A stretch of 64,000 bases of DNA from Candidatus Nomurabacteria bacterium (lineage in GTDB: Bacteria > Patescibacteriota > Minisyncoccia > Phycocordibacterales > UBA2100), in contig CALRFU010000005.1 of assembly GCA_943356775.1 (NCBI GenBank), positions 11,671 through 75,670 on the forward strand, in the 5' to 3' direction. This document shows positions 270 to 62,830 of the stretch, piece by piece. A program made the translations under genes and the position numbers. Position 1 is the stretch's first letter. Each line of letters starts with the position of its first letter. Below the pieces are notes generated by a model. That model was not told the DNA's origin and ran no database searches. It saw nothing but the letters and a program-made list of their open reading frames with translations.

Positions 270-760
270 AAAAACCAGGTTTTTTCTCCCGACTCACCGG
301 AAAGTCCAACGATGAGTACGACGATTTTTTCGAAGGCCCTTCCGCGCACCCTGCCGTATTTGAAGGCGAGGGCGAAGAGCGACATGCTCATATCAATACG
401 CGCGAAGAAGCCTGGTCGGGAGAAGAGCCGAAGGGAGAGCTTGCGGTAGACATCTACCAGACGCCCGACGCCATTGTAGTCAAAGCGCTCGTCGCTGGCG
501 TACAGCCCACCTCTATAGATATTTCCCTCACCCGCGAGATGCTGACCATTTCGGGCATGCGCGAGGATGAACGCGAAGTCGAAGAAGACAACTATTTCCA
601 ACGCGAACTCTACTGGGGCTCATTCTCCCGCACCATCCTTCTCCCCGAAGAAGTCGATGTGGATATGGCGGAAGCGTCCGAAAAGCACGGCATTCTCATG
701 ATTCGCCTCCCCAAGATAAATAAGAAGAGACAGACCAAGCTCAAAGTCCGGAGTCGTTAG
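257..760 (+). CDS. Hsp20/alpha-crystallin family small heat-shock protein
   Basis: 167 aa with an alpha-crystallin domain pattern (AVDIYQTPDAIVVKALVAG...ISLTREMLTISG...GSFSRTILLPEEVD...GILMIRLPK). Confidence 0.8.
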   Translation: MALLKKPGFFSRLTGKSNDEYDDFFEGPSAHPAVFEGEGEERHAHINTREEAWSGEEPKGELAVDIYQTPDAIVVKALVAGVQPTSIDISLTREMLTISGMREDEREVEEDNYFQRELYWGSFSRTILLPEEVDVDMAEASEKHGILMIRLPKINKKRQTKLKVRSR

Positions 761-1601
761 CACTTTCGTCCACTAGCCCGAGACGGTAGATGTCGAAGGA
801 GTTCTCGCCTTCAAACATATCCGACGGATTCGGGAGATAGAGACGTTTGCGACCAATCTCGGTGGTCGCGTCATTGATGAGCCGGTGGAAGACTTCGAAT
901 TCATCCGTGACGTCGGCAAAGTCGATAATGTAGCGCCGCATTTGTGATGAGCCGTCAGCGTTCTTCTTTTTCTTGCATTCCTGCACGATGAATCGCCGCA
1001 CTTCCTTCCCGTACTTTTTTTTGACCGTGTAGTAATTAAATATCGCCTGCATAACGAAAAGCGTCTTCTGCCCCCGCCCCTTGCTGAAGGTATCGACGAA
1101 TTTGTGGTCGACAATGTCGAGCGCCCCCTTCTGAATACGGGACTCGACTACCAAGTCGGAAACGGCTTTGATGGGAAGTGCGAGCCCCTTCACTTCTGCC
1201 GTCGCCACCACCTCGACGCCCACGACCTTGTGCTTCGGTGCCCGCGCTAGGTAGAAGGATACGGCCTGCAGATAGTCTCGCTCCATATGCATACGCTTTT
1301 CTTTTTGTGCGCGGCGCGATTTCGCTTTGCCGAAGTTAACCTCAAAATCCGCAACATTCCTCAGATACTCGAGCCCGAGCGCTACCGCCCCCTCCTTACC
1401 TATCCCGCCATAGAAATGTTGGAGAGCGGTGTGTGCGGCACGACCGATGACAGCCGAGGGATTGGAAGGCGTATCGCGAATATTCTCGACATAGCGCTTG
1501 TACCAGGCAAGCGGATTGCGCAGAAATGCCATGAGCGAGGAATGGCTCCAATGTTTGATGGGAAATGCCTTCTTGCCCCTTTTTGCACTTGCCCCCTTCA
1601 T
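741..1601 (-). CDS. PD-(D/E)XK nuclease superfamily protein (RecB/Cas4-like fold, no Cys cluster)
   Basis: 286 aa. N-terminal HWSHSSLMAFLRNPLAWYKRY motif typical of the PDDEXK_1 family; later D...E/D.K-like motifs (SDLVVESR, LDIVDHK). Its 3' end overlaps the hsp20 gene convergently. Confidence 0.5.
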   Translation of the reverse strand: MKGASAKRGKKAFPIKHWSHSSLMAFLRNPLAWYKRYVENIRDTPSNPSAVIGRAAHTALQHFYGGIGKEGAVALGLEYLRNVADFEVNFGKAKSRRAQKEKRMHMERDYLQAVSFYLARAPKHKVVGVEVVATAEVKGLALPIKAVSDLVVESRIQKGALDIVDHKFVDTFSKGRGQKTLFVMQAIFNYYTVKKKYGKEVRRFIVQECKKKKNADGSSQMRRYIIDFADVTDEFEVFHRLINDATTEIGRKRLYLPNPSDMFEGENSFDIYRLGLVDESANDSGL

Positions 1602-1767
1602 GCCGCGAGTATATCATCGTACCCATCGCGCACACTGAGGATGCGTATCCCCCTTTCAAAATTGACAAAATATGGCTTAGGAATAGGATGTCTGCTGCCG
1701 TTGTTCTTGTATTGTGTCGCGGCAAAGTGTAAAACTGGGAACAACTTTCGGTAAGGGGAATCTGAGA

Positions 1768-9816: not shown

Positions 9817-12800
9817 TTACCTCTCCACCGACTCTTTCCGACTCTGGCTTTCTGGAATTTCAGCAGGTGCGGCGGCAGCGAATTCTGCCTCCATTTGCGC
9901 TATCATTTTGTGTTTCTTGCTTCCCTTGAATCCGGTACCGGCAGGGATAAGGCGACCGATGATGACGTTCTCTTTGAGACCGATGAGGCGGTCCACGGCG
10001 CCCGAGACAGCGGCTTCAGCGAGCTTTCGCGGCGTGTTTTGGAATGAGATTGCCGAGAGGAAGGATGCACGTGTGAGCGAGACTTCGGTGATACCGAGCA
10101 AGAGCTGCCTGCCCTTCGCTGGTTCGCCGCCGACTTCTTTTTGCACTTTGTTGATGCGTTCGAATTCGAAATCAGCGACTATCTCTCCTGCTGAGACTCC
10201 TGTGTCGCCTGAGGTTGTGACAGAGACACGAGAGAACATCTGCTTGACGATGACTTCCAAGTGCTTGCGGCCCGTGGATACACCCTGGAGCTCGTAGATG
10301 CGCGTAATTTCGTTGATGATGTATTGCTGTGCACGTTCCTTGCCTGCGAGCATGAAGAGCTCGTCGAGGTCGGCGGAACCGTCGGTGAGGAATTCTCCCT
10401 TGGTGACGGTGGCGCCCTGCTTCACGAGAATCGTGCGAAGTGGGTGGATGCGGTATTCGGTCTCTTTCTTTTGTGCCTTCGCGGTCTTCGCGGTCGAAGC
10501 AACATCAGGGACAATCGTGATGACAGTCTCCTGTCCGTCTTTGATGATATCCGCCACGATACCTGTAACACGCGAGATGGTAGCGGGGAGTTTCGGCTCG
10601 CGGGTTTCGAATACTTCTTCAACGCGTGGAAGACCCATGGTGATGTCTCCGCCTGCAGTCGCGACGCCTCCGGTGTGGAAGGTACGCATAGTGAGCTGAG
10701 TTCCCGGCTCGCCGATAGCCTGGGCGGCGATGACGCCGATTGCTTCTCCGACATCAACGATTTCGCCGGTTGTGAGGTCCATACCGTAGCACTTCTGACA
10801 GACGCCGCGTGCCACCTTACAGGTCATTGGAGAGCGTACAGTGACTTCTGTTGCGTTGCTGTCTTCAACGGCCTTGGCATCATCGCGATTCAAGAGATGA
10901 TTACGCTTGAAGCCTCCTCCATCTTCTGCGAGCACACGACCATTTACACGGTCTCCGAATGAGCCGCCGATATTTTCTTTGCCCGGGCGTGGGATGAGAA
11001 CACCTTCCTTGGTACCGCAGTCTTCTTCCAAGACGACGACGTCGTGAGCGACATCGAAGAGACGGCGCGTGAGGTACCCTGCGCGTGCCGTGTTGAGCGC
11101 GGTGTCGGCAAGACCTTTACGGGCGCCGTGTGTCGAGATGAAGTATTCAATCGGAGTAAGACCTTCTTTGAGTGAAGATGTAATAGGGAATTCGATGATT
11201 TCTCCGCGTGGGTTTGTGATGAGACCTTTCATACCCACCATCTGGTGGAGCTGTACGACGGAACCACGGGCGCCGGATGTAATCATGTCGTGCACAGGGC
11301 CTGTGTTGTCGAGCGCCTCGACGACGTGCTTGCGCAATTCGCCTGATACCCGGCCCCAGATTTCAATGGTCATGCGACGGCGTTCGTCTTCAGTAAGAAG
11401 CCCCTGGTTGTAGTTATCGAGCTCTTTCGCAGCCTGTTCGCGGCCCGCCTTAACCATTTCTTCCTTCACTTCAGGAATAACGACATCGGAAATTGCCCAT
11501 GTGATACCTGCATATGTCGCGTAGCGGAAACCGAATTTCTTGATTGCGTCGAGAATCTTTGGGATACCGTCGAGCTGGTAGTGCGTAACGAGGTTCTGCA
11601 CGAGAGCACTCATGCGCTTGTTGGTGATTTCTTCGTTGAGGAAAGGGAAGTCGCTCGGCAAGACGGAATTGAAGAGAAGACGGCCGACGGTTGTTTCGAA
11701 CACTTTACCTTCGTACTGGGCGTACTTCTTGTTTTCAGTCGGAAGCACTCTGATTTTTGCGCGCAAATCTACCGCGTTGAAATCGTGTGCGGTTATAGCG
11801 GCATTGGTGGAAGGGAATGCACTTCCCTCTCCTTTCAGTCCATCGACGGACTTGGTCATCCAGTAACAACCCAAGACGATATCGAGAAGCTTGGATGCGA
11901 CGACGACGTCGCCCGAACCCGGCTTCAGGATGTTTTTGTTGGCGGACATCATCATCTTCGCTTCCATTTGAGCGGCTTCGGAGAGCGGTACGTGTACAGC
12001 CATCGCGTCGCCGTCGAAGTCGGCGTTGTACGCAGGACAGACGAGCGGATGCACTTGGATAGCATTGCCTTCGATGAGTACCGGGCGGAACGCCTGGATA
12101 GACTGGCGGTGAAGTGTCGGTGCGCGGTTCAAGAGTACGTACTTGTCTTTGATTGCCTCTTCGAGAATTGGCCAGACCTCCGGTGCCTCGTCTTCAATGA
12201 GACGGCCGGCTCCGCGGATGTTGTAAGCGAGTTCACGTGCGAGGAGTCCTTGGATGACGAACGGACGGAAGAGCTCGAGCACCATGTGCTTCGGAAGACC
12301 ACACTCGTCGAGTGCGAGGTCCGGTCCGACGACGATGACAGAGCGGCCCGAGTAATCGACACGCTTACCGAGGAGGTTTTGGCGGAGGTAACCGTGTTTA
12401 CCCTTCAAGTAATCAGCGAGGGATTTGAGTGCGCGGCGGCGGCCACCGAGGATACCGAGCACACCTGCACCACGGCGCATGGAGTTGTCGAGGAGCGCGT
12501 CGACGGCTTCCTGGAGAATGCGCTTTTCGTTGCGGAGAATGACTTCCGGAGCGTGGATGGCGAGCAACCGCTTCAAGCGGTTGTTACGGTTGATGACGCG
12601 GCGGTAGAGGTCGTTCAAGTCGGAAGATGCATGACGACCCCCTTCGAGTGCGACCATCGGGCGGAGTGCCGGCGGTACTACAGGGAGACGCGTCATAAAC
12701 ATCCACTCAGGGCGCACACCTGCACGCTGCAAGCTCTCGGCGAGGCCGAGGCGCTTACGGAGTTTGTCGCGGTCTGCGGCACCGGAGTTTTCGTACTCCT

Positions 12801-16710: not shown

Positions 16711-16973
16711 AATAACAAGGTTTCCGTACGATGCTTCGCATCGCAGGTAAGAATCATTATTAAATTTTTAGTAAAATGAGACTTTCGTCTCATGCTGTCT
16801 GCGTCGCTCGGAAATGAAAACGAGTTTTCATTTCACTCACTATCCTCGACAGACAAAAGGCTTTCCCCGAACCAAAACCTTTTACTAAAAGCGCAGCCAG
16901 AACTCAATCGGCTCGTAGCAAATGTCGGCAGAGTATAAGCGAGACCCCGCCCAGTGTCAAGCGCAAATTTTGG

Positions 16974-17906
16974 CTAATAACCTTTCTCATCAACCGTCAC
17001 CCCGCTGCGAATTCCAATTTGAGCATTTGATTTGGTCGATTCCTTATCTAGTTCATCAAGAAGGCTCCTGAACTCTGTCATCCACGCGGGGTCTAAGTAT
17101 CCTTGTAGATTTCGTGTTAGATTCTTCAATCGATACTCTCCGCCCCCCTTCGGTCCGTGACCGACATAGCTCCTGTACAATATGCCTGCTTCGTCTGCTG
17201 TCCGATGTTCGGACTGGAACGCAAGTATCTCGTATATTAATTGGACAAGATTTGCAGCAAATTCCGTTCGATAGTCTTCCTTGAGACCTCGAGGCAGACT
17301 CATTGATTGAGCCAGTTGTAGAGATTGCCCAAGCCATCTGTCCGCTTTTTCTCCAAAATTAAAAGGGAATTCCTTGTTTATCGCCGCTGCGGCTTTCGTA
17401 AATCTTTCAAAACCTTTCGGAGTAACGTCACCGTGATACGTTTTTACGTGACTCTGATAGGCGTCATACATAACCTTACTTGCCCCCGGAGCGCTTGTGC
17501 CCGTGTCGACCTTCAACAATTTGAACTTGTTCCAATTCTTTTCTTTGACAGCCCTGAGCGCTTCCATAACCAACTCTTGTGTCTGCTTTATTGCTTCGGG
17601 GTCTCTGTTTTGTTCTTTCCCCAAAGAATCAAGTACCGAGCTTTTCGCCGAAAGACCTCCGAGCGTCTGGTCTACTACAGATCTAAACTCGGCAACTTTA
17701 TCAGCCGGAACTTCACCCTTATATGCCAAACGCATATTATCCCACGCTGTAAGAACAGCTGCCTCCGTGGCAAGATCATCTCCCTGTTTTGCAGATTGCT
17801 CAGCCACTGTTAATTGCTCTTTTGCATCATCTGCAAATTTCTCATCCCTCTTTTCATCTCCCTGCACTGAATTACCTTGAGGTTTTATCGCATTAGGCAT
17901 GCTCAC
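16974..17906 (-). CDS. Hypothetical soluble protein (310 aa)
   Basis: Long ORF with no TM segment or recognisable motif, AT-richer than its neighbours, lying between an IS-like element and rpoB. Confidence 0.5.
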   Translation of the reverse strand: MSMPNAIKPQGNSVQGDEKRDEKFADDAKEQLTVAEQSAKQGDDLATEAAVLTAWDNMRLAYKGEVPADKVAEFRSVVDQTLGGLSAKSSVLDSLGKEQNRDPEAIKQTQELVMEALRAVKEKNWNKFKLLKVDTGTSAPGASKVMYDAYQSHVKTYHGDVTPKGFERFTKAAAAINKEFPFNFGEKADRWLGQSLQLAQSMSLPRGLKEDYRTEFAANLVQLIYEILAFQSEHRTADEAGILYRSYVGHGPKGGGEYRLKNLTRNLQGYLDPAWMTEFRSLLDELDKESTKSNAQIGIRSGVTVDEKGY

Positions 17907-17951
17907 ATTTTACACCAAAAAGCACCACGAGCATTGACCAAAATCGACTCT

Positions 17952-18685
17952 CTTCGGAGGTTAAACCTTCGGAGATTCGTGGTACGCTAGACGGATGGCA
18001 ACACGGGCACCATGCGTGACAGACGAGTGGTATCACTGCTACAACAGGGGTGTCGACAAGCGCAAGGTTTTCGAGTCGAAGGCGGACTATGAACGCTTCA
18101 CCGCCCTCTTATATGTTTCAAACGGGGATAAGACCGAGGCTATTTCCGACAGGTACCGCAGAGATTTGCAGTCGATTCTCGCAGGTGACCCCGCGGAGCG
18201 GGGCAGACCCCTCGTAGACATCGCTGCTTTTTCCTTGATGCCTACCCATGTCCACTTGGTGTTACAACAACTGCAAGACGGCGGGATTGCCCGATTCATG
18301 CAGAAAGTATTTACCGGCTACACGATGCATTTCAATGCGAGGCGGGAGCGAACCGGCGCCTTGTTCGCGGGTACATACAAAGCGAAACACATCGACGACG
18401 ATAGATATCTCAAGAAGGTGATTCCGTACGTTATTTTGAATCCTGCGGAGCTATTTGAACCGAAATGGAAACAAGGAAAATGCGATGTTCGAAAGGTGCG
18501 CGCGCAATTGTTGGAATATCCCTACTCCAGTGTGAAAGAGTTCTTCAGTAAAGACGCAACGGCCCAGAAAATCACTGGCGCAGGTATACGAGAATACTTC
18601 GACCGAATGCCGAATCTGACGGAAATGCTTAGAGACGCGCAGGACTACTACCGTGAGTATTCTCCGGAGGTTTAACCTCCGGAGT
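17952..18685 (+). mobile_element. Compact IS-like element: HUH Y1 transposase gene flanked by 23-bp terminal inverted repeats
   Basis: Left end 17952..17974 is CTTCGGAG-GTTAAAC-CTTCGGAG. Right end 18663..18685 is CTCCGGAG-GTTTAAC-CTCCGGAG, the reverse complement of the left end with 2 mismatches. They enclose the 17995..18675 transposase ORF. Confidence 0.6.
17995..18675 (+). CDS. tnpA: IS200/IS605-family (RAYT-like) HUH tyrosine transposase
   Basis: 226 aa with YHCYNRGVDKRKVF..., the HUH motif MPTHVHLVL, and catalytic-Tyr region FTGYTMHFNARRE...GALFAGTYKAKHI. Confidence 0.7.
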   Translation: MATRAPCVTDEWYHCYNRGVDKRKVFESKADYERFTALLYVSNGDKTEAISDRYRRDLQSILAGDPAERGRPLVDIAAFSLMPTHVHLVLQQLQDGGIARFMQKVFTGYTMHFNARRERTGALFAGTYKAKHIDDDRYLKKVIPYVILNPAELFEPKWKQGKCDVRKVRAQLLEYPYSSVKEFFSKDATAQKITGAGIREYFDRMPNLTEMLRDAQDYYREYSPEV

Positions 18686-19321
18686 TTTACGTGATTTCTT
18701 CCATTCCTCGATTTTGGCGTGATGGCCGGAGAGGAGAATCTTGGGGACCCGGTGTTTTTTACCTTTCCACTCAAGAACCTCCGGTCGGGTGTAGACGTCG
18801 GGGCTCGATACACGGGATGCTTCAAGGGATTCTGCCTTACCCAAGACCCCCGGTACAAAGCGGGAAATAGCGTCTATAAGAGTGGCTGCCGGAAGCTCCC
18901 CGCCCGTGAGCACATACGGTCCGACAGAGACTTTCTTTGCCTTCAGTATTTTTTGTACGCGCGCATCTACTCCTTCGTAGTGTCCGCAAATAAAAAGTAT
19001 GTCTTTCTTTTTGGAAAGCTCCTTGGCCATCACCTCATCGAATACCACGCCATCAGTGGCGAAGAATATCTTTTCAACTCCTTTTTTATTCCCTATCGCC
19101 TTCTGCGCCGCGCGCAACATCCCATCCGGCTCTAAAACCATACCGGGTCCGCCACCGTATGGTCGTCTGTCGACACGTCCATGTCTGTCTCGAGTGAACT
19201 TTTTCGGGTCGTAATATGAAATTTTTATTTTTTTTGCGGCAATCGCACGGCCAATGATAGAAGCGTTGAGATACGGCTCAATAGATTCGGGAAACAAAGT
19301 AACGACGTGAAAATGTAGCAT
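18629..19321 (-). CDS. trmD: tRNA (guanine37-N1)-methyltransferase TrmD
   Basis: MLHFHVVTLFPESIEPYLNASIIGRA...DDRPYGGGPGMVL motifs. Its 3' end overlaps the IS-like element's right end. Confidence 0.9.
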   Translation of the reverse strand: MLHFHVVTLFPESIEPYLNASIIGRAIAAKKIKISYYDPKKFTRDRHGRVDRRPYGGGPGMVLEPDGMLRAAQKAIGNKKGVEKIFFATDGVVFDEVMAKELSKKKDILFICGHYEGVDARVQKILKAKKVSVGPYVLTGGELPAATLIDAISRFVPGVLGKAESLEASRVSSPDVYTRPEVLEWKGKKHRVPKILLSGHHAKIEEWKKSRKTPEVKPPENTHGSSPARL

Positions 19322-22535: not shown

Positions 22536-22926
22536 TGTAACAAGAAAAACCCTTACCGGCAGATTTTACTTCCCTCTCACTCCACTCTTCAGTTCCACCG
22601 GCTTCAAGCGTGCAAGAGAAATAGCGGGGACAACTGCCCCGATATCCTGCCGCAAGATGCCGACGCGCCGAATTCTATCTTGAGTGATGGGCTCGGGCGC
22701 TTCCGGACGGAAGCGGAGCATGGAGTAGTCTTCGGTACGATAGTGCTGCGACATCGTCGCTTCCTAACGTTGTGTGAGCGGCCTTCCGACCGCAGAGCAG
22801 GGGTCTCCTACTTTTTTGTTACGTATTATCTATGTTCTATTTGTCAATAGCCCAGGCGAGGTGATTTGTCCTCAAATAGAGCCAAGTAACCATTGCTTAA
22901 AGGCCAAGGCATATCATAATAGATAA

Positions 22927-60957: not shown

Positions 60958-61968
60958 TCACTTCCGCACAATCACTTTTTTCACTGCCTCTACGATGTGC
61001 GAGGAGCCCATGCCGTAGTGCTCTATCAATTCCTTGGGTTCGCCTGATTGTCCGAATTGGTCGTGCATGCCGATAAATTCAATCGGCAAAGGGCATTCTT
61101 GTGCGAGCAATTCGGCAATCGCTGAGCCAAAACCGCCCATTATCTGGTGTTCTTCAACGGTGACGACGGCACCCGCCGCACGCGCTTCACGAAGAATCGT
61201 TTCTGTATCGAGCGGTTTTATCGTGTGCACATTGGTGACCGAGACGGCGACGCCTTCTCCTTCGAGCTGCCGCGCAGCGACGAGCGACTGATAGAGAAGG
61301 TGCCCGGTCGCAAAAATAGCTACCTGTGGCGTAACTGACTTGCCCTGAGCATCGTCGAAGGGTTTCCACACGACATTTGCCTTCCCTATCTCAAAGGGCG
61401 TATCAGGCGTTGTCATAATCGGTGTCTTGTCGCGCCCCCACCGCATATAGACGGGCTTCCCGAGCTTCGCGGCAGCGACCGTCGCCTTACGTCCTTCTTC
61501 TGAATCGCATGCAGAAATCACAGTAAAGTGCGGAATGGAACGCATGAGTGCCATGTCTTCAAGTGCCTGATGTGTGGCGCCATCGGGGCCGACGGAAACG
61601 CCCGCGTGCATACCGCAAACGATGACGGGAACGTTGTTGATGCCGATCGTCGTGCGTATCTGCTCCCAATTCCTCCCAGGGTTGAATGCCGCATACGAGG
61701 TGATGAAAGGGATTTTCCCATAGAGTGCCATGCCCGCTGCGACCGTCGCCATGTTTTGCTCGGCGACGCCGCACTGGATGAAGCGCAGAGGAAATGCCTT
61801 TTGAAAATGATGCGCTTGAGTGGATTCAGCAAGGTCAGCTGTGAGCACGACGACGCGCTCGTCGGCCGTGCCCGCTTCGACCGCGCCCTTGCCAAAGCCC
61901 TCGCGTGTGGAGGCCATCGCGGGCTTGTCAAAAATATTCTCTGCGAGTTTTGCGTCTGGGTTCAACAT
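60958..61968 (-). CDS. Transketolase, C-terminal (pyrimidine-binding) subunit
   Basis: FGKGAVEAG...VVLTADLAEST, FIQCGVAEQNM, ITSYAAFNPGRNWEQIRTT, and the C-terminal domain. Start taken at MLNPD (the ORF track's longer start overlaps the upstream gene). Confidence 0.85.
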   Translation of the reverse strand: MLNPDAKLAENIFDKPAMASTREGFGKGAVEAGTADERVVVLTADLAESTQAHHFQKAFPLRFIQCGVAEQNMATVAAGMALYGKIPFITSYAAFNPGRNWEQIRTTIGINNVPVIVCGMHAGVSVGPDGATHQALEDMALMRSIPHFTVISACDSEEGRKATVAAAKLGKPVYMRWGRDKTPIMTTPDTPFEIGKANVVWKPFDDAQGKSVTPQVAIFATGHLLYQSLVAARQLEGEGVAVSVTNVHTIKPLDTETILREARAAGAVVTVEEHQIMGGFGSAIAELLAQECPLPIEFIGMHDQFGQSGEPKELIEHYGMGSSHIVEAVKKVIVRK

Positions 61969-61969
61969 A

Positions 61970-62830
61970 TTATTTAGTACGCAGCTCTTCCAAAAACGCC
62001 TCGGCTTGTTTATCAGCAGGAATTTTATCAGTCGGGCCTTTGCCTGGCGGCGTACCATGCCAGCGATAATCGCCTTCTATTTCGCGAATACCTTTGCCGG
62101 GAATTGTGTGCGCAAGGATCATCGTCGGTTTTTCACGAATGGCCCTTGCCTCGTCGCACGCGGCGATGAATTGGGGGATGTTGTGCCCATCCACTTCGAT
62201 GACATGCCAATTGAACGCCTCATATTTATCACGCAAAGGCTCGAGCGGCATGATGTCTTCGGTATTGCCATCTATCTGGATGTTGTTGCGGTCCATGATG
62301 ACGGTGAGATTGCTCAATCGGTACTTGCCGGCGAACATTATTCCTTCCCAGGTATTTCCCTCTTCATGCTCCCCGTCAGACGTTGCACAGAAAACGCGAA
62401 AGTCTTTCCCATCCATGCGCGCGGCGTACGCGTAGCCAGACGCCTGCGATACTCCTGAGCCGAGCGGCCCTGAGGTGGTTTCCATACCAGGCAACATGTC
62501 GCGTTCGGGGTGCCCTTGGAGTCGACTTTTGAACTTTCGGAGGGTCAAACATTCTTCTACCGGGAAATAGCCCGCATGCGCCATCGCCGCATAACGGACG
62601 GGAACGATATGGCCGTTGGAAAGTATGAGTCTATCGCGCTCGGCCCAATCTGGATTTTTGGGATCGTGTTTTAAGATACGGAAGTAGAGCGCCGCAAAAA
62701 TGTCCGCCATACCTAAAGGACCGGCCGTGTGTCCCGAACCCGCCGCGACGAGCATCTCGATGATGGTCACACGAATATCGTGCGCATGCTCTCCAAGCTC
62801 GCGTATTTGTTCGTCGGTCAACAGCTCCAT
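61970..62830 (-). CDS. Transketolase, N-terminal (TPP-binding) subunit
   Basis: AGSGHTAGPLGMADIFAALY, ILSNGHIVPVRYAAMAHAGYF, GPLGSGVSQASGYAYA, the split-transketolase arrangement. Confidence 0.88.
   Translation of the reverse strand: MELLTDEQIRELGEHAHDIRVTIIEMLVAAGSGHTAGPLGMADIFAALYFRILKHDPKNPDWAERDRLILSNGHIVPVRYAAMAHAGYFPVEECLTLRKFKSRLQGHPERDMLPGMETTSGPLGSGVSQASGYAYAARMDGKDFRVFCATSDGEHEEGNTWEGIMFAGKYRLSNLTVIMDRNNIQIDGNTEDIMPLEPLRDKYEAFNWHVIEVDGHNIPQFIAACDEARAIREKPTMILAHTIPGKGIREIEGDYRWHGTPPGKGPTDKIPADKQAEAFLEELRTK

Follow-up and report, generated by a model that had tools for sequence, protein, structure and literature searches.

A probable REPtron-like unit at the 3′ end of trmD in a Candidatus Nomurabacteria genome: a Y1 HUH gene between two palindromic hairpins

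What kind of element sits against the last codons of trmD in Candidatus Nomurabacteria? The DNA analysed here is a stretch of 64,000 nucleotides (nt) of contig CALRFU010000005.1 (forward-strand positions 11,671 to 75,670; hereafter the window, whose own numbering is used throughout), in which a gene for a Y1 HUH endonuclease stands between two palindromic hairpins. We read this block as probably a unit of the REPtron/TIRtron type, wherein a domesticated class-2 Y1 HUH gene is held between two cognate palindromic hairpins. An earlier note on this DNA had proposed an insertion sequence (IS)-like element, with a fallback on an arrangement of the kind formed by repetitive extragenic palindromes (REPs) and REP-associated tyrosine transposases (RAYTs). 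The fallback is the better reading, because diverged paralogs, synteny and solo hairpins suit a REPtron-like unit better than an active IS. The function of RAYT/REP systems is debated (selfish, domesticated or regulatory) and, to our knowledge, work on them has been confined almost entirely to Proteobacteria and a small number of other phyla. The core features of the block are the following:

17952–17974, no strand assigned: left (upstream) palindromic hairpin CTTCGGAGGTTAAACCTTCGGAG, from sequence, repeat search and folding.
17980–17988, plus strand: extended −10-like box TGGTACGCT, from sequence, ending 6 nt before the ATG.
17995–18675, plus strand: gene for a 226-aa Y1 HUH endonuclease (RAYT/TIRYT-like), from open reading frame (ORF), profiles, alignment and fold model.
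18662–18684, no strand assigned: right (downstream) perfect palindromic hairpin CTCCGGAGGTTTAACCTCCGGAG, from sequence, repeat search and folding.

Both ends of the block are palindromes of 11 + 11 nt about one central base, and their polarity is set solely by this base, A versus T. Because each end is itself palindromic, the pair fits a direct-repeat alignment (27 nt, 85%) about as well as an inverted-repeat one (24 nt, 92%). CTTCGGAGGTTAAACCTTCGGAG and CTCCGGAGGTTTAACCTCCGGAG are the sole matches at up to three mismatches in the 64 kb, with 0 in 100 shuffles, and a scan of the window for the hairpin signature of the wider gene family returned the same two sites alone (1 match across 30 randomised windows). 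As single-stranded DNA, the right hairpin is predicted to fold with −11.7 and −11.8 kcal/mol on its two strands (z = −6.2 and about −6). The left hairpin, in which two C-to-T changes create G·T mismatches, is a degenerate copy and weaker (−6.9 kcal/mol, z = −2.3). Five independent assemblies of the window's strain type carry the identical pair. The earlier note had thus described two real palindromes, although it set the right end at 18685, one base too high. Read as coding sequence, the right hairpin gives SPEV* on the plus strand and the TPEVKPPE of TrmD on the minus strand; trmD overlaps this hairpin plus the last 47 nt of the HUH ORF. On the plus strand the hairpin is followed by TTTT, and a terminator scan scored it as terminator-like. 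A 10-nt perfect inverted repeat further out (17938–17947 and 18708–18717) was also considered as a terminal repeat and discarded: about 0.7 such pairs are expected by chance per 1.2 kb, and its right copy is conserved trmD coding sequence.

The encoded protein is, judged by sequence and predicted fold, a Y1 HUH enzyme. Residues H85 and H87 (HVHLV, the HUH motif) and Y145 (YVILNP) are invariant across 23 homologs, down to 49% identity, as are N149, the EWYHC..RG.DKR block near the N-terminus and the YPYSS motif of the tail, while P150 is the consensus residue. A hidden Markov model (HMM) search placed the protein in Pfam Y1_Tnp (PF01797) by a marginal pass (24.1 bits against a cut-off of 23, E 4e-5, residues 74–146). 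In an AlphaFold model (pLDDT 88, pTM 0.87), Y145 lies within a predicted helix (136–147) and the chain ends in a helical C-terminal tail of ~80 aa, in which a Pfam search found no helix-turn-helix (HTH)- or DnaA-C-like match. Foldseek against the PDB ranked 4ER8, the complex of the E. coli RAYT with a REP hairpin, first (E 1e-4) and then ISDra2, IS608, Sulfolobus and IS200 TnpA; the top matches (4ER8, 2XM3, 2VJV, 2A6M, 2EC2, 2F4F) are all Y1 transposases. At the sequence level, a profile search of PDB sequences gave weak ISDra2 TnpA matches (E 0.07), and neither a single-sequence search of the same set nor a search of PHROGs returned anything. Instead of the Y---Q motif and core-only length of ~150 aa typical of IS200, the protein has YVILNP and 226 aa including the tail. 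Y---NP is described as the mark of the class-2 TnpA-Y1 proteins, the branch of the family with the RAYTs, and Y...Q as that of IS200 transposases (PMC6006769). In length, motifs and tail the present protein resembles TnpA-Y1 subclass 2.1, a tentative assignment made here from motifs.

How widespread is this architecture? A first search gave 754 hits, and a profile search gave 715 clusters at 50% identity (E ≤ 1e-30). All 80 genome loci fetched come from Patescibacteria or from metagenome-assembled genomes (MAGs) of unclassified bacteria, the named taxa being Kaiserbacteria, Paceibacterota, Adlerbacteria, Nomurabacteria and Lloydbacteria, plus MAGs labelled Saccharibacteria. Together with the window, these make up 81 loci (numbered L001 and so on), in each of which the 110 nt before the start codon were compared with the region around the stop codon, upstream flanks set against the downstream flanks of other loci serving as control. 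In 72 of the 81, at least 12 identical nt are common to both flanks (median 20, against 7 in the cross-locus control), and this common sequence is always palindromic, as exemplified by CTCCGGAGGTTTAACCTCCGGAG, ATATCAAGGTTTAACCTTGATAT, CAATGAGATGACATCTCATTG and ACCGCAAGGCGACGCCTTGCGGT. Over 118 hairpins the apex AGG..CCT is near-invariant (A:T at ±5, G:C at ±4, G:C or A:T at ±3), while the stem pairs ±6 to ±10 vary among three or all four pair types and remain 91–98% Watson-Crick. Hairpins hence differ between loci by compensatory stem changes, yet match within each locus. Every such change needs four coordinated substitutions, which implies that one co-evolving protein recognises both hairpins, or else that they are copied repeatedly.

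Hairpins of the family type are concentrated at the gene: 129 occur in ~16 kb of gene flanks versus 28 in the other ~612 kb, the density of solo copies near homolog loci being about 1 per 22 kb. The median position of a hairpin centre is 32 nt ahead of the ATG on the upstream side and 10 nt beyond the stop codon on the downstream side; in 34 of 58 loci the last part of the ORF runs into the downstream hairpin. Loop orientation agrees between the two hairpins of a locus in 32 cases and is inverted in 25. Orientation is therefore not conserved, and the label of terminal inverted repeats used in the earlier note does not fit, even if its ends are indeed palindromic and linked to the gene. Five loci (L030, L036, L039, L044 and L046) have the upstream hairpin alone, placed after a conserved TTTT(T)CCCCAAAA and without a matching downstream hairpin. 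Two others carry a family-type hairpin within the HUH gene, in both cases 172 nt past its start (L069, at about 4158; L076, at about 4143); REP insertions inside tnpA-REP genes have been reported for subclass 2.4.

Paralogs within one genome are strongly diverged. In 11 genomes with two to four copies, same-genome paralogs are 41–71% identical at the amino acid level (mean 49%), and each inspected paralog, for instance the four of MFLL01 and the two of CP066682, has its own hairpin type. Near-identical intragenomic copies were absent from these 11 genomes (maximum 71%), where MAGs may have collapsed identical repeats. For comparison, copies of IS200 within a genome are reported to be about 99% identical, and those of subclass 2.1 to be 49.2% identical (PMC6006769). 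The position of the gene is kept as well: it adjoins trmD in four genus-level relatives (L001, L002, L005 and L094), and a different paralog group occupies a second site, upstream of smc and divergent from it, in nine genomes (at about 4001; L018, L029, L033, L035, L037, L038, L040, L041 and L045). Most related pairs are syntenic on both sides of the gene. The region upstream of smc in the window (22536–22926, 390 nt) holds no HUH gene, and no second paralog was found anywhere in the 64 kb. Among the nine smc-linked loci, SMC and HUH-protein identities showed no rank correlation (rho −0.06), but the SMC identities span a range so narrow that the test says nothing on vertical descent.

Solo hairpins also occur apart from any HUH gene. 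The REP-like copies for which the earlier note had suggested a search of the rest of the genome did not turn up in the window, whereas a metagenome scan for the exact 23-nt hairpin found 36 loci, with the gene within reach in one and 35 solo copies in the remainder. Some solo copies lie next to other hairpin types (L098, L101, L108 and L111) and some form doublets (L106 and L122). Several sit deep inside long ORFs of unrelated proteins, always in a stop-free frame, adding 8–9 aa that read (S/T)PEVKPPE or SGGLTSG; SPEVKPPE is found in L098, L100, L101, L110, L119, L122, L124 and L128, and SGGLTSG in L118, L123 and L130. Among the hosts of these inserts are a protein of 1,359 aa and the C-terminal subunit of a transketolase. 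In the latter, the hairpin stands in place of a variable loop of 18 nt (6 aa) and is not a clean insertion, so no target-site rule can be derived from this copy; the window's own ortholog (60961–61971, minus strand) has a different 14-aa loop, KPFDDAQGKSVTPQ, without the hairpin. From its distribution, the hairpin behaves like a sparse REP.

The hairpins are also tied to the start and stop of the gene. A TAnnnT box ends 6–7 nt before the ATG in 56 of the 80 homologous loci, preceded by TGn in 45; in a control of 1,620 positions, 3.5% have such a box ending 6–10 nt away. The window has no Shine-Dalgarno sequence between the TGGTACGCT box and the ATG. With so short a distance and no such sequence, we infer a leaderless or near-leaderless mRNA. 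A strict sigma-70 two-hexamer scan did not report the window's TGnTACGCT box because a good −35 is lacking, and the case for a promoter is made by the family-wide positional conservation of the TAnnnT box. Counting 17 nt back from the box, the −35 hexamer falls on the apex of the left hairpin (17960–17965, centre 17963). A protein bound there would block the promoter, so it is reasonable to suppose that the hairpin-bound HUH protein probably represses its own gene. At the other end, the TAA stop of the HUH gene (18673–18675) is the loop of the right hairpin (GAG GTT TAA), which explains the recurrent SPEV, SPKV and PPEV C-termini in the family. The corresponding loop also ends the convergent trmD in L094, L005, L001 and L002, where the opposite strand reads GGA GGT TAA.

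The neighbourhood of the block, in the spacer between rpoB and trmD, differs among close relatives. It comprises these further features:

16716–18692, no strand assigned: strain-variable segment, from strain alignment, with a diverged rpoB leader, hyp310 and the hairpin-gene-hairpin block.
16974–17906, minus strand: hyp310, an orphan gene between rpoB and the block, from ORF and family searches.
18629–19321, minus strand: trmD, 230 aa (212–216 aa in most close relatives), from ORF and homolog comparison.
18629–18692, minus strand: new TrmD C-terminal tail RKTPEVKPPENTHGSSPARL, replacing the IRK[AG] of relatives, from homolog comparison.

Four states of this spacer are found. It is empty in L081–L088, whose flanking rpoB and trmD are 99.5–99.85% identical to those of the window; it holds hyp310 without the block in L133 and L134; it holds hyp310 plus the hairpin-gene-hairpin block in the window and L089–L093; and it holds the block with other cargo and a third, outer hairpin in L094, L005, L001 and L002. 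Comparing hyp310-only with hyp310-plus-block strains, 17922–18692 of the window stands in place of 43 bp. Homology to gene-bearing relatives starts at 17951–17953, i.e. at the first base of the left hairpin, and in relatives without the gene it resumes at 18693. In the protein, the window's ...KKSRK aligns its RK with the RK of ...KKSIRK[AG]*, which puts the junction within a few nt of the right hairpin. By these comparisons of relatives with and without it, the ~735-bp block is a discrete unit placed at the final one or two codons of trmD, in line with the earlier note. The latter was also right that TrmD had acquired a new C-terminus: KKSIRK[AG] or similar in empty-site relatives has become KKSRKTPEVKPPENTHGSSPARL, and the protein, read through the right hairpin, is 16 aa longer. 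The A-run before this hairpin (18685–18692) counts four A in the window (CGTAAAACTCC) versus five in L094 and L005 (CGCAAAAACTC); with one A fewer, TrmD is no longer read in the frame that has its stop in the loop and continues as TPEVKPPE through the hairpin and then for 12 more codons antisense to the HUH gene. The protein matching the Y1/HUH family and the repeats recurring at orthologous loci were what the note's proposal hinged on, and both were found.

The orphan hyp310 matched no family in Pfam, NCBIfam or PHROGs and forms 4 clusters among 5.8 billion proteins, in every case located between trmD and rpoB, whether the HUH gene is present or not. As L133 and L134 carry it without the HUH gene, it was rejected as cargo of the block. 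An rpoB promoter (TTGACA-N17-TATACT) can be read on the minus strand around 16930–16960. The outer hairpins (L094, 976–1004; L005, 3417–3442; L001, 3458–3485; L002, 2033–2068) lie just past a TTGACA-N17-TAnnnn promoter-like site, beside the rpoB leader. The DNA from outer to inner hairpin differs in each of these relatives (an 87-aa ORF, a 185-aa ORF ending SPEV* in the loop, and others) and looks like a set of hairpin-bounded cassettes. At another site, upstream of smc, the empty-site strain L082 carries an rve-type integrase (IS) gene (358–1686, minus strand) that other strains lack, a further difference between strains within this gene cluster.

Could the block instead be an autonomous IS200-like IS, the whole 735-bp unit moving by single-strand 'peel and paste' with the hairpins as its left and right ends? 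We regard this as unlikely, albeit worth weighing. Size and layout are those of IS200, with one Y1 gene and a hairpin per end; homology to relatives is bounded by the outer hairpin edges; the block is present or absent independently of the neighbouring hyp310; L062 and L072 have the block in common but not the flanks; and the gene is found at different sites in different genomes. On the other hand, the earlier note's IS, if taken as an active, self-copying element, is not supported, given the divergence of intragenomic copies, none exceeding 71% aa identity against about 99% for IS200, and the class-2 Y...NP motif in place of Y...Q (PMC6006769). Position is kept across genus-level relatives at 70–80% nucleotide identity, the hairpins have no set orientation, whereas the ends of IS200/IS605 work on a single strand, and in the metagenome scan solo hairpins outnumber gene-linked ones. 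The strain polymorphism is not that of a moving unit either: it is a mosaic of 1,977 bp (16716–18692) in the window versus 205 bp in empty strains, with one breakpoint at the start codon of rpoB and the other 8 nt beyond the right hairpin. Within it, the rpoB leader (16716–16973) is 81% identical to that of empty strains while the flanks are 99.8% identical, and 16855–16932 is 97% identical to the more distant L094. Breakpoints lying off the block and the contrast between leader and flanks indicate allelic replacement by homologous recombination, and we rejected simple transposition as the source of this polymorphism.

A second possibility, to which we likewise give little credence, is that the hairpins are recombination sites bordering variable cassettes and more than selfish repeats, in a large family of orthogonal enzyme-hairpin pairs (715 clusters, up to four pairs per genome) that Patescibacteria would keep up in spite of tiny, streamlined genomes. 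Each hairpin would be part of its enzyme's promoter and stop codon, and others would enter coding sequences as in-frame 8-aa inserts. The suggestion comes solely from the rpoB-trmD island, where the cargo between outer and inner hairpin differs. If true, this would resemble a single-strand hairpin recombination system, loosely like integron attC, more than it would a classical REP spreader.

Less probable again is a purely regulatory role, wherein the palindromes would be a double-stranded promoter operator and a bidirectional terminator/stop, immobile, next to a HUH protein domesticated for another task, and the hairpins found elsewhere would be terminators or convergent sequences. The upstream palindrome lies exactly on the −35 region, the right hairpin is terminator-like, its loop gives stop codons on both strands in relatives, and covariation of a palindrome cannot separate hairpin folding from dimer binding. 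Yet the identical 23-mer recurs in 35 unrelated contexts, several of them mid-ORF where a terminator would be harmful; operator and terminator need not match, but do so in 72 of 81 loci; and the invariant catalytic His/His/Tyr point to retained DNA cleavage. For flanking repeats produced by chance or by assembly we found no supporting point, and the shuffles, the five independent assemblies of the same strain type and the recurrence of the architecture across the family make this explanation negligible.

Several points weigh against the REPtron-like reading itself. The sole NCBIfam match, REP_Tyr_transpos (NF047646), reached 31 bits where the cut-off is 80; by this measure the protein is related to the canonical RAYT and not its equivalog. 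A test for the GT[AG]G tag found no conserved tetranucleotide at the foot of the stem, and the family stems are perfect palindromes without a mismatch; E. coli TnpA-REP requires both the GTAG tag and a stem mismatch, and a perfect palindrome abolished its binding (PMC3333891). A covarying palindrome would equally be expected of a double-stranded operator bound by a dimer, just as block edges coinciding with hairpins would be expected of an IS200-like element. No solo hairpin was found in the 64-kb window, by mismatch search or signature scan, and the 35 solo copies on metagenome contigs have unrelated flanks and no HUH gene within reach. Identical repeats can escape notice in MAG assemblies, and binding and cleavage by any member of the family are inferred by analogy.

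How does the unit compare with known systems? REPtrons, TIRtrons and 'atypical secondary structures' flanking TnpA-Y1 genes have been described before (PMC3733652, PMC6006769). The REPtron of E. coli (yafM, 4ER8; PMC3333891, PMC3479197) has the same class-2 Y...NP Y1 HUH protein, the best structural match, in a gene likewise flanked on both sides by cognate palindromic stem-loops. Low copy number is common to both, as are vertical inheritance, paralogs that have diverged and possess repeat types of their own, and solo repeats elsewhere, some of them intragenic. The E. coli system differs in that the present hairpins lack the GTAG/GT[AG]G tag and the mismatch and occur one per side instead of in clusters (bacterial interspersed mosaic elements, BIMEs), that solo copies are sparse (none in the window) instead of numbering hundreds, and that the present protein is longer, with its helical tail.

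Closer in other respects is the TIRtron/TIRYT group (Di Nocera 2013, PMC3733652), which corresponds to subclass 2.1 (Quentin 2018, PMC6006769) and to RAYT Group 1 (Bertels 2017, PMC5581495). The xHVH, Y[IV]xLNP and SS tail (here YPYSS) motifs are shared, and the proteins agree in length (226 aa here, median 238 there) and in intragenomic identity (49% here, 49.2% reported there). TIRYT genes, too, are described with terminal repeats unrelated to GTAG REPs, some of which are self-complementary and extend into the gene at its 5′ or 3′ end, and which recur elsewhere to a moderate degree or seldom. However, those repeats share GGGGWSAS, whereas AGG(T)(T)N(A)(A)CCT is common to the Patescibacteria hairpins; for subclass 2.1, Quentin et al. 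report no REP-like structures, against near-universal hairpins here; and the present tail lacks the HTH/DnaA-C-like Pfam match of that subclass. Patescibacteria are not named among the taxa in the parts of these studies that were consulted.

IS200, the TnpA-only form of IS200/IS605, has the same unit of ~700 bp, a single Y1 HUH gene, a stem-loop at each end with the upstream one just before the gene start, and structural likeness through IS608 and ISDra2 TnpA. It differs in its Y...Q motif and in lacking the extra C-terminal domain; identical multicopy families, absent here, and a fixed hairpin orientation set it apart as well, as does the persisting synteny of the present gene. Short palindromic repeats tolerated in frame within protein-coding genes are familiar from the Rickettsia palindromic elements, and intragenic REPs are known too (PMC3733652). 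The in-frame palindromes reading (S/T)PEVKPPE or SGGLTSG are alike, but those seen here measure 23–24 nt, and their link to a HUH gene is by identity of hairpin sequence alone. Our literature search found no paper linking REP/RAYT to Patescibacteria, the one co-mention being an archaeal locus. The large Patescibacteria family of this architecture, in which pairs are orthogonal, the apex falls on the −35, the start is of leaderless type and the loop holds the stop codon, appears to be undescribed.

How might a REPtron-like unit of this kind work? The mechanism we consider is taken from solved relatives (PMC3333891, PMC3479197, PMC5027513). Like TnpA-REP of E. coli and TnpA of IS608, the enzyme would bind the stem-loop in single-stranded form, and would cleave and rejoin DNA next to the hairpin via Tyr145, with a metal held by His85 and His87. 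Such cutting and rejoining might occasionally copy the hairpin to new sites, and the flanking hairpins could be kept identical either by selection for recognition by one protein or by copying. The modelled helical tail may read the variable lower stem. Upstream, binding to the hairpin on the −35 of the leaderless-type promoter would probably repress the gene; downstream, the hairpin appears to give the gene its stop codon and a terminator-like structure, and in relatives also the trmD stop, with the window strain's TrmD presumably reading through owing to the missing A. Presence or absence of the unit between strains would then come about by homologous recombination in rpoB and trmD, not by transposition.

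What does this mean for Patescibacteria? For annotation, the unit accounts for an odd, long TrmD and cautions against naming these genes active IS transposases. Short palindromes reshape protein termini and loops where intergenic space is nearly nil, as the 16 added residues of TrmD illustrate. The relationship between enzyme and hairpin in this very large family is unusually clean, with one perfect palindrome per side, a conserved apex, a variable and covarying lower stem and several orthogonal pairs per genome, and so lends itself to direct tests of recognition specificity by means of short oligonucleotides. The family also provides a natural set of orthogonal HUH-tag/hairpin pairs.

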